Assembly (NCBI GenBank): GCA_041666185.1
Contig: JBAYHL010000005.1
Location: forward strand, 1-58,498
DNA: 58,498 bases
Source: Patescibacteria group bacterium
GTDB lineage: Bacteria > Patescibacteriota > UBA1384 > UBA12157 > JAENIV01
Reading direction: 5' to 3'
In this document: piece by piece, positions 11,430 to 50,883 of the stretch
Layout of the letters: every line of letters starts with the position of its first letter
Numbering within the stretch: position 1 is the first letter of the stretch
Position numbers and translations under genes: made by a program
Notes under the pieces: generated by a model
The model's input: the letters and a program-made list of their open reading frames with translations, nothing else
Database searches by the model: none
What the model was told of the DNA's origin: nothing

Positions 11430-11437
11430 TCTAAGTA

Positions 11438-12374: not shown

Positions 12375-12427
12375 TTAATATAAAATTCGATTTAGTTAAG
12401 TGTTGAGATTAGATTTGAGGAGACAAA

Positions 12428-13156: not shown

Positions 13157-13219
13157 CGTATCTTAACTTTTGGCTTTTAAAATTTAATTGTAGTAATATA
13201 AAAGTAAGGAGAGGTGTTG

Positions 13220-14014: not shown

Positions 14015-14027
14015 AAATTAGGGTTTT

Positions 14028-14570: not shown

Positions 14571-14579
14571 AGGAGACTC

Positions 14580-15185: not shown

Positions 15186-15187
15186 AT

Positions 15188-15766: not shown

Positions 15767-15811
15767 ATTTAGAATTATGAATTAAGAATTAAAAATTTAT
15801 TTGGAGGATAC

Positions 15812-16141: not shown

Positions 16142-16170
16142 AAAACTACACTTTAAAAAGGAGAAGAAAT

Positions 16171-16884
16171 ATGTTGAAAAAACTTAAAAATCGATTTAGT
16201 CTGTTTCAAATTGTTATTTTGTTTTTAAGTGGTGTTTTTGTAACATCAGCTGGTTTTTTATTGATAGATAAAAACAATACTGCTAACGCTGCTACAACAT
16301 ATACACAAACATGGACACCAACGTATGATTCTGATTATCAAAATTATTTTGTAGATAGTAATGACAAGAATTGGCGTTTTCGATGTAATAGCACAATGAC
16401 ACATGCATCAGGAATATGTTCTTTCAGTGATGCAAATAGTAGAATTTCTGGTACGCCAGCAACGGTAGTTAAATGGAGTGTAAGCGGCAGTGTGGGAAGC
16501 ACTAATTTTACTGAATCTTGGTCACCGTCTTCTGTTAGCGGAACAAATTATCATTTTAAAACTATTGCTAAAGGAGGTCCTACGGGCGGAGAAGACCATA
16601 CTCTTTGGGTGTTTACTGGTAATGCTAGGTTGACTTCCGACAAAACATCGTTAGAATATCAGATTTACGTTAACCCTGATGCGGACGAAGGTGCCTGCGA
16701 TAGTGTTAATCAAAGCAGATGTATGAGATGGCTGCGATTTGGTCAAGATCCTGTTGCTGGTGGTTTTCCTGTTTACCCCAGTAGCGATCGGATTGATTTT
16801 ACGCAAGACGAATTACTCTTATGGGTATGGACCGAAATAGAAGAGGGCGAAGTGGCTGGTTGGCAAGTTACTGGTTCAATTTAG
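16171..16884 (+). CDS. Hypothetical membrane-anchored extracellular protein in pilus operon
   Basis: SD AAGGAG; N-terminal TM; Cys-, Trp- and Thr-rich domain; no prepilin motif. Confidence 0.6.
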   Translation: MLKKLKNRFSLFQIVILFLSGVFVTSAGFLLIDKNNTANAATTYTQTWTPTYDSDYQNYFVDSNDKNWRFRCNSTMTHASGICSFSDANSRISGTPATVVKWSVSGSVGSTNFTESWSPSSVSGTNYHFKTIAKGGPTGGEDHTLWVFTGNARLTSDKTSLEYQIYVNPDADEGACDSVNQSRCMRWLRFGQDPVAGGFPVYPSSDRIDFTQDELLLWVWTEIEEGEVAGWQVTGSI

Positions 16885-16896
16885 TAAAGTTGTATT

Positions 16897-17154
16897 ATGA
16901 AAAATAAGACTTATTTAATTATTTTTATCATTTCGTTTTTATTTTTAACTTTTTCTTTAGAAAATAGCGGTTATTTATATAAGATCCCTAAAGTTGGTAA
17001 TTATCTTTTAAGCGTCAAGCTGTCTTATCAAGCGGATAAATTTTCTCCAGAAACTGTTCAGCATAAAAGATTAAAGGCCATGTCGGAAGCGTTTAAAAAG
17101 AATCAAAAAACATATAGTTATGATGGCAGTGGTATTACTGCTCCCAATAAATAG
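16897..17154 (+). CDS. Small hypothetical membrane protein
   Basis: 85 aa, N-terminal TM helix; co-directional, 12-nt gap. Confidence 0.45.
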   Translation: MKNKTYLIIFIISFLFLTFSLENSGYLYKIPKVGNYLLSVKLSYQADKFSPETVQHKRLKAMSEAFKKNQKTYSYDGSGITAPNK

Positions 17155-17165
17155 AAAGGATAAAT

Positions 17166-17405
17166 ATGAAATCTAAAGGAATCTGGCTTTTGGTAATATT
17201 TTCTCTCTTGACTTTTCTAGACGTACTAGTAATTTTTAAACCAGTTAAAGCAATGGCGCCGCCACCTTCGTCACATATTTGGCTTTGGTTTTCGCAGAAC
17301 AAACAAGTTGCTACTGCCACGACAGCTATTGTAACAGTTACATGGCCAGAGGGGACAAGAACGGAAAAAGTGGAATTAAAAACATTGTTAAAAAATTTAA
17401 GATAA
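17166..17405 (+). CDS. Small hypothetical secreted/membrane protein
   Basis: 79 aa, signal-like N-terminus ending VKA/MAPPP. Confidence 0.45.
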   Translation: MKSKGIWLLVIFSLLTFLDVLVIFKPVKAMAPPPSSHIWLWFSQNKQVATATTAIVTVTWPEGTRTEKVELKTLLKNLR

Positions 17406-17421
17406 GGATTAAGGAGCGAAT

Positions 17422-17889
17422 ATGAAATATTTTTCTAAAAAGCGCGGTTTTACACTTATTGAACTTTTGTTAGTGGTAGCAATTATTGTTGTTTTGGCTA
17501 GTTTAGTTTTAGTAAGCGTTTCTAAATCAAGACAAAGTGCCAGAGATGGTAAAAGAAAGGCTGATTTAAGTACGATTCAATTAGCGCTTGAAATGTATAA
17601 GGATTCAAAAGGGGCGTATCCAGTCCATGCTACGTGGGTATACGATGGCCATGCACAGTGGGCTACATTATCAACTGAATTAAAATCTTATCTTTATCCA
17701 ATGCCAAAAGATCCTATTAACAGTACTAAGTATAGGTATGAAATATACACAACAAATGCTAGTTATTATATTCGTACTCGAGTAGAAGATGTTAGTAATA
17801 AAAATGCTGGTGTATCTTGCTACTATGTTATTGGTGGAACTGCTGATACATATCTTCACAGTGATGATGCTGACACCTTTTGCGATTAA
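17422..17889 (+). CDS. Type IV prepilin / GspG-like pseudopilin
   Basis: [23 protein letters not shown], then SRQSARDGKRKADLSTIQLALEMY typical of GspG/PilE helices. Confidence 0.85.
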   Translation: MKYFSKKRGFTLIELLLVVAIIVVLASLVLVSVSKSRQSARDGKRKADLSTIQLALEMYKDSKGAYPVHATWVYDGHAQWATLSTELKSYLYPMPKDPINSTKYRYEIYTTNASYYIRTRVEDVSNKNAGVSCYYVIGGTADTYLHSDDADTFCD

Positions 17890-27265: not shown

Positions 27266-27388
27266 TACAAAAAAACCGAAGGAAACTTCGGTTGGCTCGA
27301 GCTACCATGATTCTTAATTGCTTAAGAACTTTAGGCCTAGAGTTTTGCGCCACCACTTTTCAGTGATTTTGCCTTTTCGGTTTTGTAT
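27266..27388 (-). ncRNA. Candidate small RNA 2 (~120 nt)
   Basis: Minus-strand TTGACA (comp. 27418-27423) with TATAAA/TAAATT (comp. 27395-27402); ends at 8-bp stem AACCGAAG/CTTCGGTT with a 4-nt loop (TTTC as transcribed on the minus strand; GAAA on the plus strand) plus T7 (27266-27293); no SD-led ORF. Confidence 0.4.
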
Positions 27389-29174: not shown

Positions 29175-30272
29175 ATGGACGATGAAAAAAAGTATTGGGT
29201 AGCCCTTTCAACTCATAATAAAATTGGCGGCAGAACTTTACTTAAGCTTTACAAAAGATTTCGTAAATTGAGCCGTATTTGGCAGGCGGATCGTCAAAGT
29301 CTTGCTAAGGCTGGTCTTGATTTGGGTCAAATCGAAGCTGTAAAAGAGGTGATTTCCAAAAAAGATCCAGATAAAGAGTTAAAAAAACTCGAAAAATATA
29401 AAATCGAAGTTCTAATTTACCCAGATGAAAACTATCCAAAAATCCTAAAAGAATTGCCGGACCCACCGGGTATTCTTTATGTTCGCGGTAAAATTTTAGA
29501 AGAAGATAAATTAGCTATCGGTGTTGTTGGCAGTCGCAAATACACTTCTTATGGTGAAAGAGTCACAAGAGAGCTGGTTTATCCATTAGCTCAAAGAAAA
29601 ATTACAATTATTTCCGGGCTTGCCTTAGGAATCGACACTTTAGCCCACAGGGCCGCTCTCGAAGCTGATGGCAGGACTTTGGCAGTTTTAGGTTGTGGTC
29701 TAGATCAAATCTATCCAAGCATTAATATTAGATTAGCTGATAAAATCCTCTCTGGGGCAGGGGCAATAATTTCCGAATTTCCTTTAGGAATGCCGGCTTT
29801 AAGGCACAATTTCCCGATTCGCAACCGAATTATTGCCGGACTGAGCCTTGGAACATTAGTTGTTGAAGCGGCTCTAAATTCGGGCTCACTCTTGACGGCA
29901 ACGGCAGCAATAGACTACAATCGGGAAGTCTTTGCAGTTCCTGGTTCAATTTTTTCCGAAAGTTCCCAAGGGACAAACAAGCTTATTAAAATGGGCGCTC
30001 GGCCCACGACTTCTTTCGAAGATATTTTAGAAAGTTTAAATATTAAAGAAAAGTCTAAAAAAATAGGCCAAGGACCAATTTTCGCCGATACCAAAGAAGA
30101 GGAAATTTTGTTAAGATTATTAAAGCAACCAACAATGGTTGATACCTTAATCAAAAAATCTGGGCTTAAGGCATCACAGGTTAATTCTGTTCTGATTGAG
30201 ATGGAGATTAAAGGTAAAGTTACAAACTTAGGCGGAAGCCAATTTATTATTAATGGAAAAATGAACGAATAA
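29175..30272 (+). CDS. dprA: DNA-processing protein A (Smf)
   Basis: GVVGSRKYTSYGE, ISGLALGIDTLAHRAAL, FPIRNRIIAGLS; C-terminal winged-helix-like tail. Confidence 0.9.
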   Translation: MDDEKKYWVALSTHNKIGGRTLLKLYKRFRKLSRIWQADRQSLAKAGLDLGQIEAVKEVISKKDPDKELKKLEKYKIEVLIYPDENYPKILKELPDPPGILYVRGKILEEDKLAIGVVGSRKYTSYGERVTRELVYPLAQRKITIISGLALGIDTLAHRAALEADGRTLAVLGCGLDQIYPSINIRLADKILSGAGAIISEFPLGMPALRHNFPIRNRIIAGLSLGTLVVEAALNSGSLLTATAAIDYNREVFAVPGSIFSESSQGTNKLIKMGARPTTSFEDILESLNIKEKSKKIGQGPIFADTKEEEILLRLLKQPTMVDTLIKKSGLKASQVNSVLIEMEIKGKVTNLGGSQFIINGKMNE

Positions 30273-30278
30273 AAATAT

Positions 30279-32459
30279 ATGAATTTAGTTATAGTAGAGT
30301 CGCCGACTAAGGCGAAAACAATTGAAAAGTTTTTAGGAAAAGATTTTGAAGTTGTGGCCAGTTTTGGCCATGTTCGAGATTTGCCGCATAGTGAAATTGG
30401 GATTGACATAAAAAACAATTTCGAACCTAATTATGTTATTGTTCCCAAGGCTAGTAAGATTTTAAAGAATATTAAAGCCAAGGTTAAGCAGGCAGATGCT
30501 CTTTATTTGGCAACAGACTATGATCGCGAAGGTGAAGCAATTGCTTGGCATCTTCTTCAGGCTATAGGTTTAAAAAAGCTTAAGACGAATAGGATCACTT
30601 TTCATGAAATTACTAAGGATGCTATTACTGAAGCCATAAAGCACCCAAGAGATATAGACATTCGTTTAGTTGACGCTCAACAGGCCAGGCGTATTTTAGA
30701 CCGCCTGGTTGGCTATAAGCTTTCGCCGTTTTTATGGCGTAAAGTTGCTCAAGGACTCTCGGCTGGTCGGGTTCAGTCGGTTGCTGTAAGGTTAATTGTT
30801 GAAAAAGAAAGAGAAATTCGGAAATTTAAGTCTCAAGAATATTGGTCAGTGGAAGCTTTGCTAAAGAAGGGGAGTGGTCAGCTCAAAGCGATTTTAACCG
30901 AAAAAGATGGTAAAAGACTAGATAAATTAGCTATTAATTCGGAAAAAGAAGCTAAAGAAATCTTGGAAAAGCTAAAAAATGCTGATTATTTGGTTAAAAA
31001 TGTTAAAAAAGAAGTTAAAAAAAGATATCCAGCCCCGCCATTTACTACCAGTACTTTACAACAGGAGGCAGGCAATAAATTAGGGATGTCGGCTAAGCAA
31101 ACTATGCGCTTAGCTCAGGGTCTTTATGAAAAAGGTTTAATTACCTATATGAGAACAGATTCGGTTAGCGTTGCCAGTATTGCCCAAAAAGATGCTAAAA
31201 AGACTATTGAGCAACAATTTGGCAAAGATTACACCCTCGACACTCCTAGGTTCTTTAAGACTAAGTCCAAAGGTGCTCAAGAAGCTCATGAGGCAATTAG
31301 GCCAACTAACCTTAAATTATTGCCAGAAAAAGCAACCTTAGATGCTTCAGAATTAAGACTCTACAGCTTAATTTGGAAAAGAATGATTGCTTCACAGATG
31401 AAAGATGCCGAAATGCTTGAAGAAAATGTTAAAATTAGTGCCGATAATTTCACATTTACTGCCAACGGTCTTAAGGTTCAATTTGATGGATTTTTAAAAG
31501 TTTACAATAAAGTCGAAACCAAAGAAAATACCTTACCAGAACTAAAAATTGGCGATAAGCTAGATTTAGAAAAAATAGAGAAATTGCAGCATTTTACCGA
31601 ACCGCCGGCAAGATTTACAGAAGCAAGTCTTATTAAGGAATTGGAAAAGAAGGGGATTGGCCGACCTTCAACTTACGCACCAACGCTCTCTACTATTATA
31701 GATAGGGGATATGTTGAGAAAAATGAAGGAAAATTAAGCCCTAAGGAAATAGGTGAAGTTGTAAATGACGTTTTGGTTGAGCATTTTCCAGAAGTAGTTG
31801 ACTATGATTTTACGGCTAGAATGGAAGAAGAGCTTGATGAAATTGCTGAAGGGAAGCTTAAGTGGGAAAAGGCGATTAATGATTTTTATGAACCTTTCTC
31901 TAATAACTTAAAAACTAAAACTAAAGAAGTTGAAAAGAAAGATTTATCAGAGGAATCAGATGAAGATTGCCCTAAATGTGGTAAAAAATTAAAGATAAAA
32001 TTAGGTCGTTTTGGTAAATTTTTAGCCTGTTCTAGCTTTCCTGAGTGTAAGTTTACCAAACCTTTGGGTCAAATTGGCATTTCTGATGAGAAAAAAGCCC
32101 AATTAGCCGAGGAAAAATGTCCAAAGTGTGGCAAAGAAATGACCTTTAAAGAAGGTAAATTCGGTCAATTTCTAGCCTGTTCAGGGTATCCGGAATGCAA
32201 AACGACTAAAAATATTGAAATTGTCGCCGCCGCTCCTTGTCCTAATTGCGGCGGAAAACTATTGCGAAAAAACACCCGTAAAAGAAAAGTTTTCTGGGGG
32301 TGTGGTAATTACCCTAAATGTAAGACTGCTTTCTGGGAAGAGCCGACTGATCAGAAATGTCAAAAATGTGGTAGTATTATCTTAAAAGACAGAAATGGTA
32401 AGTTAAAATGTAGCCAATGTGACGTGAAAGAAAAAAAAGTTTTAAAAAGTAAAAAATGA
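30279..32459 (+). CDS. topA: DNA topoisomerase I with four C4 zinc ribbons
   Basis: TOPRIM LVIVESPTKAKTI, ATDYDREGEAIAWH, active-site region YMRTDS, four CPKCG/CPNCG ribbons. Confidence 0.93.
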   Translation: MNLVIVESPTKAKTIEKFLGKDFEVVASFGHVRDLPHSEIGIDIKNNFEPNYVIVPKASKILKNIKAKVKQADALYLATDYDREGEAIAWHLLQAIGLKKLKTNRITFHEITKDAITEAIKHPRDIDIRLVDAQQARRILDRLVGYKLSPFLWRKVAQGLSAGRVQSVAVRLIVEKEREIRKFKSQEYWSVEALLKKGSGQLKAILTEKDGKRLDKLAINSEKEAKEILEKLKNADYLVKNVKKEVKKRYPAPPFTTSTLQQEAGNKLGMSAKQTMRLAQGLYEKGLITYMRTDSVSVASIAQKDAKKTIEQQFGKDYTLDTPRFFKTKSKGAQEAHEAIRPTNLKLLPEKATLDASELRLYSLIWKRMIASQMKDAEMLEENVKISADNFTFTANGLKVQFDGFLKVYNKVETKENTLPELKIGDKLDLEKIEKLQHFTEPPARFTEASLIKELEKKGIGRPSTYAPTLSTIIDRGYVEKNEGKLSPKEIGEVVNDVLVEHFPEVVDYDFTARMEEELDEIAEGKLKWEKAINDFYEPFSNNLKTKTKEVEKKDLSEESDEDCPKCGKKLKIKLGRFGKFLACSSFPECKFTKPLGQIGISDEKKAQLAEEKCPKCGKEMTFKEGKFGQFLACSGYPECKTTKNIEIVAAAPCPNCGGKLLRKNTRKRKVFWGCGNYPKCKTAFWEEPTDQKCQKCGSIILKDRNGKLKCSQCDVKEKKVLKSKK

Positions 32460-33076
32460 CTAAAATAATCCCTGATTCAGTTTTAAGCTTAATTGAAGAA
32501 TTTTCTCGTTTGCCTGGAATTGGTCCAAAAACCGCTTCTAGGCTAACTTTTTACCTGTTAACTAAACCGGAATCCGATATTCAAAGATTTGGTCAAGCTC
32601 TTTTAGATTTAAAGAAAAATTTGAAATATTGTGAATGTTGTTTCAATATCACTGAAAATTCTCCTTGTGAAATTTGCTCCAGTAAAGAAAGAAAGAGGGA
32701 CGAGGTTATGATTGTTGAAGAACCTTTAGATATTGTTGCCTTGGAAAAAACCGGTTTTCGAGGGGTTTACCATGTTTTAGGGGGTGTAATTTCGCCAATT
32801 GAAGGTATTGGACCAGAAAACTTGCGTATTTCGGAAATTTTAGAGAAAATTAAAAAAGATGAGGAAATAGAAGAAATAATTTTAGCGACAGACCCTTCTT
32901 TGGAAGGTGAAGCTACCTCAATGTATTTAGCCCAATCTATTAAAAAATTGGATTTACAAGACAAAAGAAAGATAAAAGTTACCAGAATTGCTCGAGGTTT
33001 ACCGATTGGCGGTGACCTGGAGTATGCCGACGAAATAACTCTAACAAGGGCTATTGAAGGCAGAAGAGAATATTGA
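32456..33076 (+). CDS. recR: Recombination protein RecR
   Basis: LPGIGPKTASRL HhH, C4 zinc finger CECC...CEIC, Toprim EEPLDIVALEKT. Confidence 0.92.
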   Translation: MTKIIPDSVLSLIEEFSRLPGIGPKTASRLTFYLLTKPESDIQRFGQALLDLKKNLKYCECCFNITENSPCEICSSKERKRDEVMIVEEPLDIVALEKTGFRGVYHVLGGVISPIEGIGPENLRISEILEKIKKDEEIEEIILATDPSLEGEATSMYLAQSIKKLDLQDKRKIKVTRIARGLPIGGDLEYADEITLTRAIEGRREY

Positions 33077-33150
33077 CCTCCACACCTATCGTTGATAGAA
33101 GCCGCCTTTGGCGGCTCAAAAACGCAGTTTATCAACAATAGGTGTGGGGG
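33077..33150. repeat. Long imperfect inverted repeat enclosing a GC hairpin
   Basis: CCTCCACACCTATCGTTGATA (33077-33097) pairs with TATCAACAATAGGTGTGGGGG (33130-33150); inner hairpin GCCGCC-TTT-GGCGGC (33101-33115). Confidence 0.6.
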
Positions 33151-33163
33151 TGAAGGAGAGGAA

Positions 33164-33361
33164 ATGAAAGAAGAACAAGCTTTTTGCCCAAATTGCGAAT
33201 GGACAGGTAACGCAGAGGGGATTACCTCATGCCCTGTTTGTGGCGCAAACCTGTCGAGTCTTGACTCTTTTGAAGAGGAGGAGGCGGTGGCTGGCAAGGA
33301 AGATAAGTATTCAGCCGACCTAATTTCAAAAGTGCAAGAAGAAAACAGTTGTGATGAATAA
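33164..33361 (+). CDS. Small zinc-ribbon protein with acidic tail
   Basis: SD GAAGGAGAGG then ATG 33164; CPNC...CPVC; 65 aa. Confidence 0.55.
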   Translation: MKEEQAFCPNCEWTGNAEGITSCPVCGANLSSLDSFEEEEAVAGKEDKYSADLISKVQEENSCDE

Positions 33362-34966: not shown

Positions 34967-36451
34967 ATGCGACGTACATTAACAACTATTTTTGTCACTA
35001 TCATCGTTATTTTGACGGTGATGATTCCGGCTCAGGCGAGCTGGGTTTCGGAACTACTTTGGGGTCGACATCGGGAGTATACAGCTTCCGGTATGACCTA
35101 CTCCGTGGACGAAAAGATTCCGGCAGCGTGGGTTAAGGACTCGGTCCTTTCGACTCGCTATTGGAAAGAAGGCGCGCCGGTTTTTGCTGGTACGGTCCTT
35201 CGAATTGGAGTCTTGCTAACGACTGGATCAGAAGATGGACGGCGTTTTGCCATCTGTGTTACTGATCCTGGTAAGGTTGTCGGCAATTTGTCTGGCGAGG
35301 CGGACTTCGAGTCCGATCTCAATAAAGACAAAAATGGCGGTCTGAGAGTCTTGGGTACCTTTGTCGGCAAGTATGGGCTCGTAGAGCTTAATACTTACGA
35401 CCTGGAGCCAGGGACATACTTCCTCTACAGCTACGCGCTTAACTCGCGCAAAGCTTGGAAGTTTTCTGAAAACGCTATCGCTATCCAAATCGCTCCATCG
35501 CTTTCGGAGATGATTCCGGCCTTACAAAATGAGCCGGATGAAATCTTGAAAACTTGGGGTCTGGCAAGCTATCCAACACTTGAAGAAGTAGTTGGTCAGC
35601 GTGACCAGTCGTCTGCTTTCTTCGACATTAGTTTTGCCGATGGCGGCAAGATGTCGAGCGTAAAGATGCCAGGGAGACCGTCTGTTGGACGAATTCTTGG
35701 AGTTTTTACCGACGACGAACTGCTTGGCATTGCCAAGATTGACTCGATAAGCGACGGCGTTGTCCGAAGCTCTTCGAGTTCAAAGTTCTTGCACAATGTT
35801 CAAGGTCGTGAAAGTCAGCTTAAAGCTGCTTGGGTTATTCGCACTGAGGTCTATTCGACCAAAGGTAATCGCGACATTACCCTTAAGCAGCATCAGAATT
35901 TGATGACTTTCCCTGACGGACCTGTTGGTTCAGCAACCTTTGGGTTGCAGAATATGGTCTACGAAATGTTTCAAGCTGGAGTGGTGCATTTAAATGAACC
36001 GTTCAAGAAAAACACTTCGTTAGACTATCAACAGATGTATCAGAATTGGACAGCGGCCAAGCATACTTATGTGCTTGCGCCAACGGAAAGTTATGTGCCA
36101 GAGGTCAAAGCTAAGCAACTTCGTGTTGTGAGGCTTGGTCCTGGTGGTATCCCAATTGTCAAGGTTGACGAGGCGACAGTAAGTCGCGTTGATTCTCCTG
36201 GTCTTTGGAGCGGTCTGTCCTATATTATTGGTCAGCGCGTTCATCGGCCGGATAGAACAAGCGTCAGCAACAACAGTTCGAATACGGCGACGGCGCCGAC
36301 AACCAACAATGTTGATGTCAATAGTGTCAACAACAACAGTAACGCCAACACCAATGTTAATCCGATTAACAATACGATTAACGTCGGCGATGGCTCGGCA
36401 AACGGGACTGCGACTGGCACAGGAGATTCCAATTCCGTCAGTGGTCCTTAA
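34967..36451 (+). CDS. Secreted hypothetical protein with Asn-rich C-terminal tail
   Basis: Signal peptide ...VMIPAQA/SW; higher GC; tail NNNSNANTNVNPINNTINVGDGSANGTATGTG shares a motif with the next gene. Confidence 0.7.
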   Translation: MRRTLTTIFVTIIVILTVMIPAQASWVSELLWGRHREYTASGMTYSVDEKIPAAWVKDSVLSTRYWKEGAPVFAGTVLRIGVLLTTGSEDGRRFAICVTDPGKVVGNLSGEADFESDLNKDKNGGLRVLGTFVGKYGLVELNTYDLEPGTYFLYSYALNSRKAWKFSENAIAIQIAPSLSEMIPALQNEPDEILKTWGLASYPTLEEVVGQRDQSSAFFDISFADGGKMSSVKMPGRPSVGRILGVFTDDELLGIAKIDSISDGVVRSSSSSKFLHNVQGRESQLKAAWVIRTEVYSTKGNRDITLKQHQNLMTFPDGPVGSATFGLQNMVYEMFQAGVVHLNEPFKKNTSLDYQQMYQNWTAAKHTYVLAPTESYVPEVKAKQLRVVRLGPGGIPIVKVDEATVSRVDSPGLWSGLSYIIGQRVHRPDRTSVSNNSSNTATAPTTNNVDVNSVNNNSNANTNVNPINNTINVGDGSANGTATGTGDSNSVSGP

Positions 36452-40887: not shown

Positions 40888-40997
40888 ATATTGTAAGATT
40901 AATTTGCCGTAGAAAATGGGCCGCAAAAAGCATAAGACCTATCGAGGTAAAATAAAGAATTAAGTAATAGATTATATTTCTTAAAGCTTTATATTAT

Positions 40998-41022
40998 TCT
41001 CGCGGCTAAGCGAGATTTTTTT
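40998..41022 (+). terminator. Terminator-like hairpin abutting the rplJ start (possible attenuator)
   Basis: TCTCGC-GGCTAA-GCGAGA followed by T7; ATG at 41025. Confidence 0.55.
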
Positions 41023-41024
41023 AA

Positions 41025-41546
41025 ATGTTATTAACACGTGATCAAAAAGAACAATTGATTTCAAAAATGTCAGATGGTTTGGAAAAATCTAAGACTGTTT
41101 TGTTAGTTAATTACCAAGGTTTGAAAGTTAAAGAAATTCAAGAATTAAAGAAAAAGTTGAAAGAACAGGGGATTGGTTTTCAAATCATTAAAAATTCATT
41201 GTTAAAAATTGCTTTAAAAAAAGCTAATTTATCAATTGAAGAAGGTTTACTTGATCAACCAGTGGCTATCGTTTGGGGAGATGTTGACGAAGTAACACCG
41301 GCTAAGTTGACCTTAGAATTTGGTAAATCTGCAGAAAAATTAGAAGTAATTGGTGGAATTGTTAATAGAAGCTTTGCTGATGTGGAAATGATTAAGCAAC
41401 TGGCTTCACTACCTGGACGAGAAGAATTGTATGCTAAATTAGTTGGCAGTTTGAACGCACCGATGTATCGTTTAGTAAATGCTTTACAAGGAAACTTAAG
41501 GTCGTTAGTTTATATTTTAAAACAATATCAAGAAAAAAAAGTATAA
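41025..41546 (+). CDS. rplJ: 50S ribosomal protein L10
   Basis: 173 aa; typical L10 N-terminus (KEQLISKMSDGLEKSKTVLLVNYQGLKVKEIQELKKKL); upstream of rplL. Confidence 0.9.
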   Translation: MLLTRDQKEQLISKMSDGLEKSKTVLLVNYQGLKVKEIQELKKKLKEQGIGFQIIKNSLLKIALKKANLSIEEGLLDQPVAIVWGDVDEVTPAKLTLEFGKSAEKLEVIGGIVNRSFADVEMIKQLASLPGREELYAKLVGSLNAPMYRLVNALQGNLRSLVYILKQYQEKKV

Positions 41547-41602: not shown

Positions 41603-42235
41603 ATGGCAGACGAAAAAAATATCAAAGACATGGAAAAACAAGCAGAGAAAGAAGCCGAAGCAGAAGAAAAATTAGACAAAGAACCTTCAAAAGAAGAAGC
41701 TGGTTCTAATCCAGACGAGAACGCTGAAATTGGCGCTCAAGTCGAAGAAGCTGCTGGCACTGAAGAAGAAACTCCAGCCGAAGTTGAAGCAATCAACACT
41801 GACAATGAAACAGCCAAAGAAGCTACGAAAGCTTCAGAAAAAGCTGAACCAACTGGCAAATTTAAAGATTTAATCAAAGAAATCGAAGGTTTAACAACTT
41901 TAGAGTTGGCTGATTTAGTCAAAGCTTTAGAAGAACGCTTCGGCGTTTCAGCTGCTGCTCCTATGGCAGTTGCTGGTGCTCCTGCTGCTGGTGCCGCTGG
42001 TGCTGCTGAAGCAGAAGAAAAAGCTAACTACACAGTTATTTTAACTGATTCTGGATCACAAAAAATCGCCGTTATTAAGGCATTGCGTGAGATTAATCAA
42101 GAATTAGGTCTTAAAGAAGCTAAAGATATCGCTGATGCACCACCAAAAGAAATTCTAAAAGATGCTCCAAAAGAACAAGCAGAAGAAGCTAAGAAAAAAC
42201 TTGAAGCAGCTGGTGCAAAAGTCGAATTAAAGTAA
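41603..42235 (+). CDS. rplL: 50S ribosomal protein L7/L12 with ~85-aa acidic N-terminal extension
   Basis: Canonical part [31 protein letters not shown]...Ala/Gly hinge...[11 protein letters not shown]...AGAKVELK, preceded by an E/A/K-rich 85 aa. Confidence 0.88.
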
Positions 42236-43958: not shown

Positions 43959-44013
43959 AGCTTTGTTTTAAATATTTGCAGATAGTTATATACTATAAAA
44001 GTAGGAGAATTTA

Positions 44014-44334
44014 ATGGATCAAATAGGACCTTTGAGACAAGGTACTCCTGAAGTACCCCAATCTACACCAGAAGAAAAATTACCAGAAAGTCTTGAAACC
44101 GAGACAGAAAAACCTACTTCGCAAGTAGAGCAAGAAGCAAAAGAAGCCCAACAGGAAGAAATGGTTACTTTTGAACCAGCGGAGGTGGTAATTGAGGACC
44201 AAGGAAAGGTGATTTCTGAGGAGAAAAAGCCAGAGGTCAGCAAACAGCCGGCAAATGTTGATGTTTCCGGTGAGATTAATACGGCAGATCAAGCTTTTAG
44301 ATTACAAAATGAAATAAACTCTTTGCAAGAGTAA
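44014..44334 (+). CDS. Small acidic Pro/Glu-rich hypothetical protein
   Basis: SD TAGGAG; 106 aa, low complexity; 21 nt upstream of the first ATPase gene. Confidence 0.55.
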   Translation: MDQIGPLRQGTPEVPQSTPEEKLPESLETETEKPTSQVEQEAKEAQQEEMVTFEPAEVVIEDQGKVISEEKKPEVSKQPANVDVSGEINTADQAFRLQNEINSLQE

Positions 44335-44355
44335 TTACTAAATCAAGGAGGGTAT

Positions 44356-46851
44356 TTGGAAATTGGCAGCGAACTTTTTAATATGCTCATTACTGTGGGT
44401 TTTTTCTTTTTTGTTTTTGTTGTCCTATATATTATTAGGTCTATTTTTCTGTCGAATAAATTACATTACGAGTCCGAAAGAGTAAAAAACCTTCGAATCT
44501 TTCAAGTTAGTATTCCTCAGGAAAAAACCCAAGCTCAAGAAGACCAGCATAGCGATTTTCGTGAAACAATTGCTGTTGGCGAACAGTTCTTTTCATCTCT
44601 TAGCAATCTTTATGAAAAAGGACTTGAAGAAAGAATCTACAATTTGCAAAGTCAAATATCCTTTGAAATTATTGCTCTAAATGGCAAAGTAGGCTTTTTT
44701 TGTGTTTGCCCAAAAGAAATTGAGGGCGTAGTTGAAAGACAAATTAATTCTTATTGGCCAAACGCTCAAATTCAGAAGGCAAAAATACCAAATATTTTCG
44801 AATCTCAAAAAGGATCAATGGCAAGTGTTGAACTTAAATTAACTAAAAAATTTACTTTACCAATTAAAACTTATCGTTATTTAGAATCAGATCCGTTAAA
44901 TGCCTTAACTAATGCTCTTTCAAAACTTCCGCCACAATCCGGAGCGGCTATTCAGCTAATAATTTCGCCAACAACCGATGATTGGCAAAGAGCAACAGCT
45001 GGAGCGGCTAAAAAAGTTCAAGAAGGCAAATCAATGTATTCCGACAAATGGTATACCAAGTTAGCTAACTTCATTTTCGAAGTAATCTCTGGTATTTTCC
45101 ACGGGTCTTCCGCCTCATCAATGGCTACCAACGAACCAGCTGGCATTAAAAAACCTATTCAATTAACGCCTATTCAAGAGCAAACTCTTAAACTTTTACA
45201 AGAAAAATCCTCAAAGACAGGCTTAACTTCGACGGTTAGAATTGTTACAACCGCTTTAACTTCTGGAGAGGCGATGATAAGTTTAAAAAATATCACCACC
45301 TCATTTGGTCAATTTTCTACCCCTGAATCCAATGGTTTTAAAACAAAAACCGGTTCGAATAGTACTATACGTGATTATATTTTGCGACGCATTTCTAAGA
45401 ACAAGTTTGTTCTCAACACGGAAGAATTAGCCTCTATTTTTCATTTTCCAACTGTTTTTACCCAAACACCAAATATTAATTGGCTTTTAGCTAAGGAAAT
45501 GCCGCCGCCAACAAACTTGCCTCAAGAAGGCACAATTTTGGGCGAAAGTGTTTATCGAGGCGAGAAAAAACCGGTTAGATTAAAAATCGATGATCGTCGT
45601 CGACACATTTTCATGATTGGTAAGACTGGCGTAGGCAAAACAACTTTGTATACACAAATGTTTGAGCAAGATATGAAAGAGGGAAGGGGCTGCTGTTTTA
45701 TTGATCCCAACGGTGATGCGATCGAAGACTTATTAGGTAAAGTACCGCCAGAAAGACTAAAAGATGTAATTTTATTTGATCCAGCAGATACAGAATATCC
45801 GGTAGGGTTAAACTTATTAGAATGGCGAACGGTTGATGAAAGAGACTTTTTAATTCAAGAGTCAATTCAAATATTTTATAAATTATTCGATCCGGGCCAA
45901 ACAGGGATTGTCGGTCCGCAATGGGAGCATTGGTTTAGGAACGCGGCTTTAACAATTATGAATCAACCGGGCGGAGGAACATTAATCGACGTACCAAGAA
46001 TTTTTACTGACGACAAATTCAGGACAAGATTAGTTTCTTATGTAACTGATCCAATTGTCAAAGCTTTCTGGACCCAGCAATTAGCTAAAACGGCCGATTT
46101 TCATAAATCAGAGATGTATAACTATTTTATTTCTAAATTTGGTCGTTTTATGACCAACGATCTAATGCGTAATATTATTGGCCAAAAGAAATCTTCTTTT
46201 AATATTCGAGACGCTATGGATCAAGGAAAGATATTATTAATAAATTTAAGTAAAGGCAGGATAGGGGAAGTTAATTCGAGTTTATTGGGAATGATCTTAG
46301 TTTCGAAAATTCAAATGGCAGCTTTTTCGAGAGCAGATATACCCGAAGAAAATCGCCGAGATTTTTATCTTTTTGTTGACGAGTTTCAAAACTTTACAAC
46401 CGATTCTTTCGCGACAATTTTATCAGAGGCTAGAAAATATCGATTAAATTTAGCCGTTGCTAATCAATACATTGCTCAATTAACAGAAAAAATTCGCGAT
46501 GCTGTTATTGGTAACGCAGGAACAATGATTTGTTATCGAATTGGCGCTGCTGACGCAGAATTTATGGTCAAAGAATTTCCTGGTGTCACTGTTGATGATG
46601 TAACTAACTTGGATAAATTTAATACTTATACTAAATTACTTATTGATGGCACACCTTCAAAACCATTTAGTATGAAAGGAATAAAGTCAGAAAATATTTC
46701 TGAAAATGGTGTTAGGGAAAATGCTCGTAATTTATTTAGACAAACTTATTGTCGCAAAAAAGCCGATGTTGAAAGTGAGCTGCTTGAACAAATGAAAGCA
46801 ATGAGTGAGGCGCCTCCTGCTGGTGGTAATGAACCAGTTAAAAATCTTTAA
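44356..46851 (+). CDS. Membrane-anchored FtsK/HerA-superfamily ATPase of VirD4/TraG/TraD (coupling-protein-like) type, paralog 1
   Basis: N-terminal TM; Walker A MIGKTGVGKTTL; DPNGD; Walker B RDFYLFVDEFQNF; SEARKYRLNLAVANQYIAQL. Start TTG 44356 uncertain (alternative ATG 44383). Confidence 0.75.
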   Translation: MEIGSELFNMLITVGFFFFVFVVLYIIRSIFLSNKLHYESERVKNLRIFQVSIPQEKTQAQEDQHSDFRETIAVGEQFFSSLSNLYEKGLEERIYNLQSQISFEIIALNGKVGFFCVCPKEIEGVVERQINSYWPNAQIQKAKIPNIFESQKGSMASVELKLTKKFTLPIKTYRYLESDPLNALTNALSKLPPQSGAAIQLIISPTTDDWQRATAGAAKKVQEGKSMYSDKWYTKLANFIFEVISGIFHGSSASSMATNEPAGIKKPIQLTPIQEQTLKLLQEKSSKTGLTSTVRIVTTALTSGEAMISLKNITTSFGQFSTPESNGFKTKTGSNSTIRDYILRRISKNKFVLNTEELASIFHFPTVFTQTPNINWLLAKEMPPPTNLPQEGTILGESVYRGEKKPVRLKIDDRRRHIFMIGKTGVGKTTLYTQMFEQDMKEGRGCCFIDPNGDAIEDLLGKVPPERLKDVILFDPADTEYPVGLNLLEWRTVDERDFLIQESIQIFYKLFDPGQTGIVGPQWEHWFRNAALTIMNQPGGGTLIDVPRIFTDDKFRTRLVSYVTDPIVKAFWTQQLAKTADFHKSEMYNYFISKFGRFMTNDLMRNIIGQKKSSFNIRDAMDQGKILLINLSKGRIGEVNSSLLGMILVSKIQMAAFSRADIPEENRRDFYLFVDEFQNFTTDSFATILSEARKYRLNLAVANQYIAQLTEKIRDAVIGNAGTMICYRIGAADAEFMVKEFPGVTVDDVTNLDKFNTYTKLLIDGTPSKPFSMKGIKSENISENGVRENARNLFRQTYCRKKADVESELLEQMKAMSEAPPAGGNEPVKNL

Positions 46852-46976
46852 CTTGGTTTAGTAGTAAATTTATGCTAAAATACAACTTGTTTTGGTAATC
46901 AAAAATAACTTCTTAAAACAAAAATTGACCTGCCTGCAACGCCTGAAGCGTAGCAATGGCGGGCAGGAAGGCAAAA

Positions 46977-47507
46977 ATGCAACAAACAGACAAAAAGCTT
47001 AAAGAACTAAAAATGATTTTAGATGAAGCTGAAAGTAAAATTGCCGCTGCAAAAAGAATTCTTTTTGAACAGGTCTATCAGGAACAAGCCAAGGTTTTAA
47101 ATTTAAATGATTCTTTGGAAAAGGCAAATATTGTTGAAGGTGTTTTTGATGGTGAAGAAATGATTGATTCAGAGGGTAAGAAATATCCCGTGCCAGCAAA
47201 TTACGCTTCTAAATCAAAATTAGTTCCAGGTGATAAATTGAAATTGATTATTGCTGACGATGGAACATTTATTTTTAAACAGATTGGACCAGTTGATAGA
47301 AAAAGGTTAGTAGGGATTCTTACGCAGTCTGGCGAAGATTGGACCGTGACAGCAGACTCTAAAAAATACCGCGTTTTACAAGCAACGGTCACTTATTTTA
47401 AAGCTTGTGCTGGCGACGAAGTCACGATTCTTGTACCAAGGACAGGGGAGACTAATTGGGCGGCAATTGAAAATTGTCTTAACCATAAAAAAGAAAAGCT
47501 TAAGTAA
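46977..47507 (+). CDS. Hypothetical protein: N-terminal coiled coil plus beta-rich C-terminal domain
   Basis: ATG 46977 has SD GGAAGG (alternative ATG 46956 lies inside a hairpin, no SD); KKYPVPANYASKSKLVPGDKLKL...; sits between the two ATPase paralogs. Confidence 0.6.
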   Translation: MQQTDKKLKELKMILDEAESKIAAAKRILFEQVYQEQAKVLNLNDSLEKANIVEGVFDGEEMIDSEGKKYPVPANYASKSKLVPGDKLKLIIADDGTFIFKQIGPVDRKRLVGILTQSGEDWTVTADSKKYRVLQATVTYFKACAGDEVTILVPRTGETNWAAIENCLNHKKEKLK

Positions 47508-47512
47508 ACTAA

Positions 47513-50344
47513 ATGAATATTTTAGAACCAATACTTTACAAAGGAATCATGTATACAATTCTTATTGCAATACCGATTATTGTGATTTCTTTGTTATACA
47601 AATCAAAGCAAAATAAAAAGAAAATGGAATGGTTTAAAAATCTTCAGTTCACAACTTTGAGGATTTTAGTTCCTAAAAATAATGAAAAGACGCCGTTAGC
47701 GGCCGAGCAGATGTTTGCTGCTTTACATGGAATTTTTAAAAAGGGGAGTGATTTTCAAGATTATTTTTCATTTGAAATTGCTTCACGAGAAAAATATATT
47801 CAGTTTTATGCTCATGTACCAGTTCATTTGAAAGATTTTGTTGAAGGTCAAATTTATTCTCAATATCCAACGGCGGAAATTGCTGAAGTTGACGATTATG
47901 TTTTAGAAGAAAGAGAACAAATTGAAAGTGGACAGTTGAAGCTAGCCGGTACGGAATTAAGTTTAACAAATTTAGATGTTTATCCAATCAAAACTTTTCT
48001 TAATTTTGAAGTTGACCCAATGTCGTCTATTACTGGTGTATTATCAAAAGTAGAAAAAACTGAAGAAATTTGGATTCAAATTTTAGCTAGACCGGTTTCT
48101 GACAGTTGGCAATCAAAAGGCCTTGGTCATGTGAAAGCCGTAAAATCTGGTGTGACTAACAAAGAAGGTGTTTTTAAGGGAGTCTTTGCCGCTTTTTTCA
48201 GATTCCTTGGCGGTATTTTTACCACCATTTTAACCGGAGTAACACCAGAGTCGTCACGAGGTGAGGCAGAAAAAACTGAAGCCAAATTATCTGGCAGTCA
48301 GGAAGAAGGTTTAAAAGGGGTTGAAACGAAAGCAACTAAGCTTGGTTTTGAATCAAAGATTAGAATCATCGCTTTTTCACCGGATCAAAGCACCGCTTCG
48401 AGTAAATTAATGACAACTATTGCTGCTTTTAAACAATTTAATTTACTTAATTTGAATGGTTTTGAATCAGGCCACGCAATGCACGATATTAATTTCTATG
48501 AGCACTATCGTTATCGAGCATTTTTAGATCCTGGGTTTGTTTTAAATATTGAAGAATTAGCCTCTATTTTTCACTTGCCAAATATTACTGTTGAAACACC
48601 AAATATTGTTTGGGCAGGTTCGAAAAAAGGTGAGCCACCATCTAATTTACCAATTGAAGAAAATGTTCCTGGCAACGAATTAACAGTTTTTGCTAAAACT
48701 AATTATCGTCACTTAAGTCATAATTTTGGCATTAAGCTTAAAGACCGTCGTTATCACATGTACGCTATTGGTAAAACAGGAACTGGTAAGTCAACACTAC
48801 TCGAAAACATGATTATTGATGATATTCGCGAAGGAAGAGGTGTGGCGGTTGTAGATCCTCATGGTGATTTAATAAACCATCTTTTAGATTTCGTCCCAGA
48901 AGAAAGAATTAAAGATGTAATTGTTTTTAATCCAGCCGATAGAATGTATCCGTTAGGGTTTAATATTTTAGAAAAAGTTGATCCTGATTTGAAAAATATT
49001 GTTGCCTCTGGCGTGGTGGGAATTTTCAAAAAAATATTTGGTGAGTCTTGGGGACCAAGATTGGAATATATTTTAAGAAATACAGTTTTAGCTTTACTTG
49101 ATTATCCGGATGCAACTATGCTTGGAATCACTAAAATTTTAGTTGACCAAGATTTTCGAAATCGGGTTGTTGAAAAGATTCAAGATCCGGTCATCAAAGA
49201 TTTCTTTGTTAACGAATATGAAAAATACGATCCTAAATTTAGAACTGAAGCTATCGCGCCAATTCAAAATAAAGTTGGTCAGTTTCTTTCATCAACAACC
49301 ATTCGTAATATTGTTGGTCAATCAGAATCGACGATTAACATTGAAAAAATTATGGATTCGGGGAAAATTCTTTTCTTGAACTTATCAATCGGTGAAATTG
49401 GTGAAGACAACTCTGCTTTACTTGGAGCAATGATGATTACGAAAATTCAGTTAGCGGCTATGAGGCGAACAACTATTCCTGAAGATCAACGTCGAGACTT
49501 TTATTTATATGTTGATGAGTTTCAAAACTTTGCTACCGAATCTTTTGCGACAATTCTTTCTGAGGCTAGAAAATATCATTTGAATTTAATTATGACTAAT
49601 CAGTATATTGCCCAAGTTCCGGAAGAAGTCATTTCAGCTGTTTTTGGAAATATTGGAACTTTGCTTTCTTTTCGTATTGGTGCGCCGGATGCGGCTGTTT
49701 TAAAACAAGAATTTACGCCTGTGTTTGAAGAAGTTGACTTGGTTAATTTAGATAATTACCACATCTATGTAAAAATGTCCATCGATGGGGTAACTTCGCC
49801 GGCATTTTCAGCTGGCACACTACCACCCGACAAAAGAAAGAATTTTAATAAAGAAAAAATTATTCAATATTCGCGGGAACATTATTCAAAACAGCGAGAT
49901 TATGTTGAAGAGAAAATGTCCGAAATGTCTGGCATGCCAAAAATAGACGAAATCTTGACTAAAGCTCAAAAAGATCGAGTCTTAAAACTCCCGCCAAAAA
50001 TAGGGGAGACCTATTATCGAGAAATTCAGAACCCGGGAGATATTCGTTGGTATTTGGGTGGTGGGACAACCGATCAGCCTTTGACCGAAGAAACTGTTAA
50101 GGAAAAAATTGCTAAACACGAAGAAGAAAATGCTCCAGCATGGCAAAAAGAAAGATACGAAGCTTTAGCGGTAGAGCCAAATGAAAATGTTCAAGAAAAA
50201 AAAGCTGAAGATGAGGGTGTAGATATTGAACAAGATAAAGAAGCGATCTTAGGCTCTCTTGGGGCTAATTGGAATGGTGACAATGATCAGCTCAAGCGAG
50301 AAAAGGTTGAAGATCTTGAAGATGGTCAAATAGTTAAACTTTAA
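47513..50344 (+). CDS. Membrane-anchored FtsK/HerA-superfamily ATPase of VirD4/TraG/TraD type, paralog 2, with ~190-aa charged C-terminal tail
   Basis: N-terminal TM; Walker A AIGKTGTGKSTLL; DPHGD; Walker B RDFYLYVDEFQNF; SEARKYHLNLIMTNQYIAQV; alignable by eye to paralog 1 throughout. Confidence 0.75.
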   Translation: MNILEPILYKGIMYTILIAIPIIVISLLYKSKQNKKKMEWFKNLQFTTLRILVPKNNEKTPLAAEQMFAALHGIFKKGSDFQDYFSFEIASREKYIQFYAHVPVHLKDFVEGQIYSQYPTAEIAEVDDYVLEEREQIESGQLKLAGTELSLTNLDVYPIKTFLNFEVDPMSSITGVLSKVEKTEEIWIQILARPVSDSWQSKGLGHVKAVKSGVTNKEGVFKGVFAAFFRFLGGIFTTILTGVTPESSRGEAEKTEAKLSGSQEEGLKGVETKATKLGFESKIRIIAFSPDQSTASSKLMTTIAAFKQFNLLNLNGFESGHAMHDINFYEHYRYRAFLDPGFVLNIEELASIFHLPNITVETPNIVWAGSKKGEPPSNLPIEENVPGNELTVFAKTNYRHLSHNFGIKLKDRRYHMYAIGKTGTGKSTLLENMIIDDIREGRGVAVVDPHGDLINHLLDFVPEERIKDVIVFNPADRMYPLGFNILEKVDPDLKNIVASGVVGIFKKIFGESWGPRLEYILRNTVLALLDYPDATMLGITKILVDQDFRNRVVEKIQDPVIKDFFVNEYEKYDPKFRTEAIAPIQNKVGQFLSSTTIRNIVGQSESTINIEKIMDSGKILFLNLSIGEIGEDNSALLGAMMITKIQLAAMRRTTIPEDQRRDFYLYVDEFQNFATESFATILSEARKYHLNLIMTNQYIAQVPEEVISAVFGNIGTLLSFRIGAPDAAVLKQEFTPVFEEVDLVNLDNYHIYVKMSIDGVTSPAFSAGTLPPDKRKNFNKEKIIQYSREHYSKQRDYVEEKMSEMSGMPKIDEILTKAQKDRVLKLPPKIGETYYREIQNPGDIRWYLGGGTTDQPLTEETVKEKIAKHEEENAPAWQKERYEALAVEPNENVQEKKAEDEGVDIEQDKEAILGSLGANWNGDNDQLKREKVEDLEDGQIVKL

Positions 50345-50807
50345 GGTTTAGATATTATTAAAAAGCACTCTAAAGACGCCAGTCGAATCTGTTTATATGG
50401 TTAAATTAGAAATTTTTTTCTTCTCCAGCGGGGGAGAGGTCAAATTTTAATGAATTTGCATCTTTTCTAATTTAGTTTAAATTTATTTTCATTAGACCTG
50501 CTCTTTAGTGAGGAAAGGGAAGTGCGAATTTAATAAAATTTACATTAAATTTGTACATACTTTTTCCGCATCTTTTAGAAGTATTTTTTACTATATCCAC
50601 ACCTTAAACTGATGTTTAGTCGTAAAAGAAACATTCTGCGACGCAATATAATTTAAAGTCAGAAGAAGCATACCTGTTGCTTTTATTATCTAACCCGTTG
50701 GTTTAATGGTCATAGTACATATTATTAGGTGTAGGCTTGGCTAAGGGCTTGTCTTTATATTTTTTTGCAATGTGTCTCGCCTACTTTTATATGCATATAT
50801 ATCAAAA

Positions 50808-50828
50808 TTAGTAGCAAATTGCTACTAA
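50808..50828 (-). terminator. Terminator hairpin after secF
   Basis: Perfect 10-bp palindrome TTAGTAGCAA-A-TTGCTACTAA, followed on the minus strand by TTTTGA. Confidence 0.6.
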
Positions 50829-50883
50829 TTCGACGCTCGTGCGTTTAGTAATTCTAACCTGTTAAATTAGGCTCTACAGTGCC

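Follow-up and report, generated by a model that had tools for sequence, protein, structure and literature searches.

The window analysed here is a stretch of 58,498 nucleotides (nt) of chromosomal DNA from an ultrasmall, Berkelbacteria-like member of the Patescibacteria (contig JBAYHL010000005.1, assembly GCA_041666185.1), in which a locus of four co-directional genes encodes, in order, a small acidic protein, a membrane-anchored ATPase (A), a coiled-coil protein (S) and a second, paralogous ATPase (B). According to sequence profiles and structural modelling, A and B are predicted to be hybrids, in which a transmembrane (TM) helix and a domain resembling the N-terminal domain of VirB4 precede a motor domain of the type found in the coupling proteins (T4CPs) of type IV secretion systems (T4SSs), and not plain coupling proteins. 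The most likely reading, held at about even odds, is that A and B act as the coupling-type motors of a chromosomal T4SS encoded elsewhere in the genome, A being the indispensable motor and B an accessory paralogue, while terminal peptides would let S and the acidic protein dock as adaptors or substrates. The four genes and the features of the two ATPases are the following, with lengths in amino acids (aa) and the basis of each assignment in brackets.

44014–44334, + strand: acidic protein, 106 aa (open reading frame, composition)
44356–46851, + strand: ATPase A, 831 aa (open reading frame; TTG start preceded by an AAGGAGG ribosome-binding site)
44380–44436, + strand: N-terminal TM segment of A, residues 9–27 (hydropathy of 2.52 over 19 residues; the sole TM segment)
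44455–45570, + strand: DUF8128 (PF26449) domain of A, residues 34–405 (fold like that of the VirB4/TrwK N-terminal domain)
45421–45444, + strand: motif EELASIFH of A, at the end of the N-domain and leading into the linker …TPNI.W (23 of 24 nt the same as at 48551–48574)
45619–45645, + strand: Walker A motif of A, GKTGVGKTT, residues 422–430 (invariant in the family alignment)
46366–46383, + strand: Walker B motif of A, YLFVDE, residues 671–676 (FQNF and SEARKY…NQYIAQ, the TraG-D_C region, come next)
46977–47507, + strand: protein S, 176 aa from Met8 (start by homologues and an independent gene call)
47513–50344, + strand: ATPase B, 943 aa (open reading frame)
47543–47599, + strand: N-terminal TM segment of B, residues 11–29 (hydropathy)
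48551–48574, + strand: motif EELASIFH of B (nucleotide comparison with A)
48770–48796, + strand: Walker A motif of B, GKTGTGKST, residues 420–428 (A–B alignment)
49499–49516, + strand: Walker B motif of B, YLYVDE, residues 663–668 (A–B alignment)

The initial annotation, made from the sequence alone, had described four co-directional genes, and open reading frames were recovered at the coordinates it gave for them. The intergenic gaps are, in order, 21 nt, 104 or 125 nt depending on the start of S, and 5 nt; use of the ATG at 46956 would lengthen S to 183 aa. On a second contig, where genes had been called independently, the products are 106, 831 and 176 aa long.

A and B are full-length paralogues, with 38% identity over 769 aligned residues (E 4e-164), and the Walker A and Walker B motifs are intact in both. 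Alignment and Pfam profiles thus agree with the initial annotation in describing two paralogous, membrane-anchored ATPases of the FtsK/HerA superfamily with motifs of the VirD4/TraG/TraD type. The TM segment is followed in each protein by basic residues, which form a cluster in A, and, by the positive-inside rule, the rest of A behind this segment is predicted to be cytoplasmic; B has an additional, weakly hydrophobic segment at residues 223–241. Around the shared EELASIFH motif, the columns E324, H330, P332, T338, P339 and W343 are invariant in the family alignment. The motif was initially annotated as encoded by 24 identical nucleotides at 45421 and 48551; the positions are right, and the identity is 23 of 24. 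Since residues identical between A and B share the same codon in 57% of cases and the run covers the invariant peptide EELASIFH, the shared block is unremarkable. Gene conversion was considered as its origin and rejected, as a seven-codon run over an invariant peptide is expected at this level of codon identity.

The region between membrane anchor and motor, initially delimited as a non-ATPase domain of about 320 aa, is indeed a distinct domain, but is longer (approximately 370 aa) and adopts a predicted VirB4-like fold. The Pfam family PF26449 (DUF8128) is precomputed for A, for B and for every listed homologue, covering the N-terminal ~370 residues. Residues 34–405 of A were modelled with AlphaFold2 (AF2) from a 59-sequence alignment (pLDDT 87.1, pTM 0.84), and a Foldseek search of the PDB with this model returned TrwK/VirB4 of plasmid R388 as 14 of the 14 best matches (E 1e-6 to 1e-3, probability 1.0, TMq 0.41–0.45, approximately 410–430 aligned columns), the first match to any other protein having an E value of 8e-3 and a probability of 0.38. 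No structure of TrwB, FtsK, HerA, the VirB4 C-terminal domain alone or any RecA-type protein was among the top 50, and the match is therefore to the N-terminal domain specific to VirB4 and not to a RecA-like core.

The C-terminal domain, in turn, matches profiles of the coupling proteins. In Pfam, TrwB_AAD_bind (PF10412) scored 36.2 bits in A and 38.7 bits in B against a gathering score of 20.5, T4SS-DNA_transf (PF02534) scored 23.7 in A against 20.1, and TraG-D_C (PF12696) scored 25.8 in A and 18.0 in B, respectively above and below its threshold of 22; DUF87 (PF01935) exceeded its cut-off of 23.2 in B (26.0) and fell below it in A (18.2). Both PF10412 and PF12696 were matched by all 13 family members scanned with Pfam at E ≤ 5. 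The curated T4CP models TIGR03743, TIGR03754, TIGR02759 and NF045973 reached at best 62.1 bits against a cut-off of 366, in the P-loop region only. Membership in VirB4 was not indicated by sequence, with 17.8 bits against 643 for TIGR00929 (VirB4_CagE) and no match to PF19044 (P-loop_TraG), nor was an FtsK/SpoIIIE identity, since PF01580 matched weakly (E 0.0036, four of the 13 members) and the proteins have one TM helix and no gamma domain. Sequence and profile searches of the PDB with the ATPase family matched only the P-loops of TrwB, DotL and RecA. The hybrid architecture follows from these two sets of results, the fold of the N-domain resembling only VirB4/TrwK and the C-domain matching the VirD4/TraD/TrwB profiles.

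Compared with the coupling proteins VirD4, TrwB, TraD, TraG and DotL, A and B have the same Walker A, Walker B and TraG-D_C motifs and an N-terminal membrane anchor, but contain one TM helix instead of the usual two and carry the VirB4-like domain between anchor and motor; they are also chromosomal, vertically inherited and duplicated, with no relaxase or T4SS gene in the window or in the syntenic loci. With VirB4/TrwK they share a two-domain layout of about 800 aa, an N-domain followed by a RecA-like C-domain, although the C-domain is nearer to the T4CP than to the VirB4 profiles, and the patescibacterial T4SS cluster has its own bona fide VirB4 and TrsD, apart from A and B. The N-terminal TM segment recalls VirB3–VirB4 fusions. 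As to HerA, B exceeds the DUF87 cut-off, whereas the N-domain matches VirB4 and no HerA structure in Foldseek. The C-terminal tips of the two paralogues are conserved separately: A ends in PPAGGNEPVKNL (family form PPAGxNEP(I/L/V)KNL), and B has an acidic C-terminal tail of about 130 aa with the tip LEDGQIVKL (family form LE(D/E)Gxx(I/V)K(L/I/F)). Such acidic tails and terminal peptides recall the docking tails of TraD for TraM and of DotL for its adaptors.

Protein S, initially annotated as a coiled-coil and beta-rich protein of about 176 aa, retains the coiled coil, and its beta-rich part is now assigned to a tandem OB fold. In the AF2 model (pLDDT 82), a long N-terminal coiled-coil helix is followed by two canonical OB folds, each with strands β1–3, a helix and strands β4–5, and by a Lys-rich tail. 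RNase R/RNase II gave the best Foldseek match, through their tandem cold-shock domains (E 2.8e-4), followed by S1, aIF1A, Rho, SSB (the protein that binds single-stranded DNA) and the coiled-coil and OB `inter domain' of the proteasomal ATPase Mpa (7px9 and 3m9b, E 0.03–0.15), with TM-scores of at most 0.30 for the best of them; viral OB proteins in BFVD also resemble S by structure. The order of a coiled coil followed by two OB domains is that of the Mpa N-terminus, coiled-coil and OB N-domains being found in both Mpa and PAN. No Pfam family matched S, SSB (PF00436) included, and the OB folds are recognized by structure only. A swapped hairpin of the AbrB/SpoVT type was considered and rejected, AF2 and Foldseek giving canonical OB folds. 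The S family is large and strongly conserved: clustering at 90% identity gives no fewer than 7,980 clusters (1,164 at 50% identity), the mean column identity is approximately 60%, and the motif NYASKSKL is highly conserved. Of 141 S representatives, 69 have a C-terminal extension that is acidic, of low complexity and longer than 50 aa, and most extended proteins close with a conserved tip, for example ISELEI, VKELEI or IAELDI ([IV]xE[LM][DE]I); in the Doudnabacteria type the C-terminus is …DDEEL. The layout of these long forms is SSB-like, with an OB domain, an acidic disordered linker and an acidic-hydrophobic tip, whereas S in the window has a basic, Lys-rich tail instead, with neither acidic extension nor tip. 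The UniRef name `50S ribosomal protein L7/L12' carried by Berkelbacteria S orthologues (P0172, P0216) looks like a propagated annotation error and was rejected; the real L7/L12 is encoded at 41603–42235.

The 106-aa protein encoded upstream of A is Pro/Glu/Gln-rich and predicted to be disordered, with 25 Asp/Glu against nine Lys/Arg residues and nine prolines, and ends in a short helix-like C-terminus, …AFRLQNEINSLQE; profile searches found no family match for it. In 56 of 80 Patescibacteria loci, the gene for the A-type ATPase is preceded, at a distance of at most 60 nt, by a same-strand gene for a protein of 60–280 aa. The products of these upstream genes have a hydrophobic fraction of 0.25 against a background of 0.36, are enriched in PQESTA residues (fraction 0.49, background 0.32; p ~1e-24) and carry conserved, class-specific C-terminal helices. 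The 106-aa protein is the local version of this small acidic partner. The notion that the partner might be a detached acidic tail of S was not supported, as loci with a tailed S keep the upstream acidic gene.

These 80 loci were obtained in a scan for the ATPase family with one genome per species, and span Berkelbacteria, Doudnabacteria, Microgenomatia, Saccharimonadia, Gracilibacteria-type and Paceibacteria lineages. The anchor gene scored as A-type with hidden Markov models in all 80, B was found within 8 kb of A in nine (the window counted), and S was no farther than about 3 kb from A in 11, S not being near A in most classes. The operon is syntenic in many Berkelbacteria-like genomes: the order rplA-rplJ-rplL-tgt-x-A-S-B-secF-secD is found, at ~60% identity, in CP011213, a complete genome of Berkelbacteria, as well as on further long contigs, some relatives having insertions within the tgt–secDF arrangement; the spacing between S and B is −1 to +20 nt at loci L001, L003 and L095, and at loci L004–L006 a 346-aa gene with Sigma70_r4 and HARE-HTH domains stands between S and B. 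Elsewhere, A has as neighbours YifB…A…GyrB-GyrA in Saccharimonadia, NrdR-NrdJ-PduO upstream and XerC/D-DivIC downstream in Microgenomatia, and S-GtrA-DnaX in Doudna-type loci. With these class-specific housekeeping contexts, A is a vertically inherited core gene and not something carried by a mobile element. Nor is the locus a conjugative element: its G+C content equals that of the flanks, its position is syntenic and the window holds neither relaxase nor integrase, all of which bears out the initial annotation on this point. The annotation had also named, as grounds for its own refutation, a four-gene arrangement conserved in no related genome; the survey of neighbourhoods shows conservation in related genomes and so does not refute it.

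Published data place this family in a wider context. A survey of Patescibacteria counted 5,713 VirD4-type T4CP homologues in 2,918 of 3,035 genomes, and its authors proposed a possible exaptation of these homologues (Quiñonero-Coronel et al. 2025, PMC12102498). The family to which A and B belong is thus already catalogued, both as DUF8128 in Pfam and among these T4CP homologues as tabulated in the survey, and is yet uncharacterized; it had not gone unnoticed. No publication that mentions DUF8128 by name was found in the searchable literature, nor was a description of the VirB4/T4CP hybrid architecture, of the operon A-S-B, of an OB/SSB-like or a recurrent acidic partner, or of the link to the overlooked essentiality data. 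According to the entries of Table S3, there are genomes with two `t4cp2' matches at genes n and n+1 or n and n+2 that are not near VirB4, for example genes 83 and 85 of GCA_000505065.1, and the genomes with such an adjacent pair also hold a VirB4/TrsD/VirB3/VirB2/VirB6 cluster elsewhere (PMC12102498). The initial statement that no other secretion parts accompany the two ATPases therefore holds within the window, but, as far as these tables go, not for genomes with the same adjacent pair.

The species that informs on function is S. epibionticum, the only relative amenable to genetics, in which the T4SS is essential and has no recognizable coupling protein in its cluster (Wang et al. 2023, PMC10633639). 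The supplementary transposon-sequencing (Tn-seq) tables of that study list SEML1_0142, a 1019-aa member of a core family enriched in Patescibacteria, as ES/ES/ES, its insertions falling from 114 in the input DNA to 11, 11 and 9; SEML1_0141, of 139 aa and located 12 nt upstream, received no insertions and was scored GD/ES/ES; and SEML1_0293, of 921 aa with PF10412 at 402–719, was scored NE/NE/NE (PMC10633639 supplement). In these tables the depletion of insertions in SEML1_0142 is similar to that in the T4SS VirB4 gene SEML1_0008. None of SEML1_0141, SEML1_0142 and SEML1_0293 is mentioned by locus tag in the main text (PMC10633639). Both carry the same annotation as A and B (TraM-recognition/TrwB_AAD_bind), with the P-loop domain from about residue 361–381, and differ from them in being longer and unlinked: they lie 140 kb apart, with no S gene nearby. 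The pair SEML1_0141–0142, with YifB upstream and followed by two minus-strand genes (193 and 535 aa) and GyrB, has the context of A-type genes in Saccharimonadia, and SEML1_0293 is preceded by a 349-aa `sigma factor', comparable to the 346-aa gene before B at loci L004–L006. Because of these matching contexts, SEML1_0142 is taken to be A-type and SEML1_0293 B-type. SEML1_0294, seemingly the equivalent of the sigma-like gene before B, is essential. A later T4SS survey calls the S. epibionticum T4CP homologue non-essential, apparently with SEML1_0293 in mind.

Outside the Patescibacteria, full-length homologues occur in phages. The phage family phrog_5156 (PHROGs) gives full-length matches to both A (E 2e-90) and B (E 7e-85) and shares with them the N-domain, the motor and the motif …E(L/M)SxxIH(L/M)P, but at 22–25% identity and without the N-terminal TM segment. 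In Bacillus phage G, the full-length homologue gp156 (825 aa; family profile, E 9e-87) is preceded by the VirB4-like ATPase gp155, which scores 57 bits with PF19044 and matches PF03135 weakly, and by gp154, a small TM protein. In Geobacillus phage TP-84, the homologue ATP06113 follows a small membrane protein, for which TrbC/VirB2 scored 23.7 bits, below the threshold of 27.9, and a secreted protein is encoded downstream; gp7 of Bacillus phage vB_BpsM-61 likewise lies behind a small membrane protein. The T4SS-derived mini-modules are located as follows.

88836–93336: phage G module
30267–33359: TP-84 module
1761–4837: vB_BpsM-61 module

Given these VirB4- and VirB2-like neighbours, the hybrid ATPase is tied to T4SS-type machinery independently of the Patescibacteria. 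No S homologue was found beside the phage ATPases. The TP-84 and vB_BpsM-61 modules lie in the early region, upstream of recombination genes. More distant relatives are stand-alone soluble motor-domain ATPases of about 360–580 aa, at most 45% identical to the motor of A and lacking both TM segment and DUF8128, which are found on viral contigs (IMG/VR) and on bacterial and archaeal plasmids, for example Sulfitobacter NZ_CP081110 (99994–101181), and may represent an ancestral or donor form of the motor.

If A and B serve a T4SS encoded elsewhere, they would assemble into ATPase rings at the cytoplasmic side of the membrane, where they would receive substrate and energize the chromosomal, pilus-bearing T4SS of the phylum, supplying the motors that its own cluster, without a recognizable coupling protein, appears to lack. 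S would be a nucleic-acid- or substrate-binding adaptor docking on the motors, and the acidic protein an adaptor, a regulator or a substrate. A would be the indispensable motor, as suggested by the essentiality of the syntenic SEML1_0142 and of its acidic partner in S. epibionticum, and B an accessory paralogue that probably differs in the substrates or adaptors it recognizes and on which A would not depend as a partner. Several observations weigh against this reading. No T4SS structural gene, VirB4, VirB6, VirB3 and VirB2 included, was found in the 58-kb window. In the survey data, only 148 of the 5,713 T4CP homologues lie near virB4, and VirB4 was found in 2,417 genomes against 2,918 of 3,035 for T4CP-like proteins (PMC12102498), a gap that could be explained by incomplete metagenome-assembled genomes together with two to four T4CP copies per genome. 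SEML1_0142 belongs to class I (essential at T0), while most T4SS genes belong to class II, the insertion counts being similar nonetheless (PMC10633639), and SEML1_0142 is assigned to the A type by synteny, size and annotation, and SEML1_0293 to the B type by synteny, in both cases not by alignment. The relationship of DUF8128 to VirB4 is moreover one of fold only, as PF03135 was absent from the 13 members at E ≤ 5 and an hhalign comparison of the family N-domain with phage G gp155 gave no signal.

A tentative alternative, possible if not probable, is that A, with or without B, is a T4SS-independent membrane motor that moves single-stranded DNA (ssDNA) or RNA, for instance in the scavenging or export of host nucleic acids, with S as an SSB-like hub and the tails and tips as docking elements. 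Such an autonomous translocase would suit genes that mostly lie away from virB4 and are more widespread than VirB4, a tandem OB protein resembling RNA- and ssDNA-binding domains, often with an SSB-like layout, and the class I essentiality of SEML1_0142, which is that of replication genes; a 2026 preprint on host-RNA feeding by a patescibacterium points in the same direction. DNA-metabolism neighbours (GyrB/GyrA, YifB/ComM, DnaX, NrdJ/NrdR, and XerC/D with FtsB) may also be cited in its favour, but this argument is weak because nearly all neighbours in small genomes are housekeeping genes. On the other hand, one TM helix per subunit provides no obvious pore and the operon holds no channel partner, the phage homologues adjoin VirB4- and VirB2-like genes, and S is absent from the vicinity of A in most classes. 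In S. epibionticum, furthermore, FtsK and SSB are canonical and essential, and ComEC and DprA are dispensable (PMC10633639), so that a role in either chromosome segregation or classical transformation is not indicated; replacement of FtsK was accordingly rejected, and a competence motor is unlikely.

The dispensability of ComEC and DprA also bears on a model developed from the initial annotation, which had suggested a heteromeric translocase possibly acting together with DprA and the type IV pilus of the same window; in its strict form, A and B are an obligate heteromer and a motor for competence-linked DNA uptake. Adjacency and the tight coupling of S and B are kept in Berkelbacteria-like genomes, both paralogues retain their catalytic motifs, the N-terminal domain of R388 VirB4 is known to mediate dimers (a `trimer of dimers' in the titles of the Foldseek matches), and the type IV pilus genes of S. 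epibionticum are class I essential (PMC10633639), as is SEML1_0142. The heteromer is nevertheless quite unlikely: the Saccharimonadia paralogues are unlinked, one being essential and the other dispensable, B accompanies A in only nine of the 80 loci, and the linkage to pilus genes and dprA was not seen in other classes. Highly improbable, finally, is a remnant or cargo of a mobile element (coupling proteins of an integrative and conjugative element or a plasmid) or an anti-phage defence system of the HerA or `mad8' type, for which the stand-alone relatives of the C-domain on plasmids and viral contigs, the full-length phage homologues and weak PADLOC matches (mad8 55 bits, and HerA) might speak, but which is opposed by the absence of relaxase, integrase, repeats or a tRNA boundary around the locus, by a G+C content like that of the flanks, by the same tgt–secDF position in distant relatives and by a phylum-wide core family whose A-type member is essential in S. 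epibionticum; the PADLOC matches cover the generic P-loop core only, and defence was rejected on that ground.

The surroundings of the locus are those of a housekeeping chromosomal region, as initially annotated and confirmed by the gene calls, with rplA-rplJ-rplL-tgt upstream and the convergent secF-secD downstream. A possible operon promoter lies in the 55-nt gap between tgt and the gene for the 106-aa protein:

43967–43994, + strand: TTTAAA-16-TATACT (consensus match only)

The evidence for this promoter is weak, because shuffled sequence is expected to give as many matches of this kind as the region contains. The convergent interval between B and secF (50345–50883, 539 nt) is gene-free, with no Rfam match and no terminator-like site. 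Upstream, ribosomal protein L1 (40024–40887, + strand, 287 aa) has a Lys/Glu-rich N-terminal extension of about 90 aa and L7/L12 (41603–42235, + strand, 210 aa) an acidic one of about 85 aa, with an L10 leader (Rfam) at 40889–41032. The remainder of the window includes dprA, topA, and genes for tRNA synthetases and ribosomal proteins, as well as a complete type IV pilus set (5890–17889, + strand) with PilT, PilC, a PilB that carries an MshEN domain, six or more N-methyl pilins and a prepilin peptidase, after which comes an RNase H gene. A c-di-GMP-I riboswitch (27288–27383, − strand; 48 bits, above the gathering score) stands directly upstream of the gene for an 872-aa Big_1 (Ig-like) surface protein (24492–27110, − strand), in a stretch with a G+C content of 0.44 against approximately 0.35 in the remaining window; the protein is a candidate adhesin controlled by cyclic di-GMP. 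The most G+C-rich part of the window (0.465) includes a 494-aa open reading frame without a Pfam match (34967–36451, + strand).

The Patescibacteria represent a large share of bacterial diversity and are host-dependent, with an essential T4SS for which neither a coupling protein nor a substrate has been recognized. From the present analysis, the `T4CP homologues' of the phylum are predicted to be hybrids of VirB4 and VirD4 that come with conserved partners. One of the paralogues had, together with its small acidic partner, already been scored as essential in the only Tn-seq data set, and the hybrid also occurs in phages of Firmicutes, next to VirB4- and VirB2-like genes. The missing motor and adaptor thereby have concrete candidates, SEML1_0141 and SEML1_0142 in a tractable species and A, S and B in the window, and the question of what feeds the patescibacterial T4SS, or whether there is a second translocation route, becomes testable. 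It is doubtful that the DUF8128 ATPases constitute a previously unrecognized third lineage of T4SS-type motors, dedicated to an essential, T4SS-independent translocation in which an SSB-like S hub and acidic partners dock via C-terminal peptides; were this the case, such a lineage would, for example, take in or hand over host-derived RNA or ssDNA, on which nucleotide-auxotrophic epibionts depend. The hybrid architecture itself bears on the divergence of VirB4 and VirD4.

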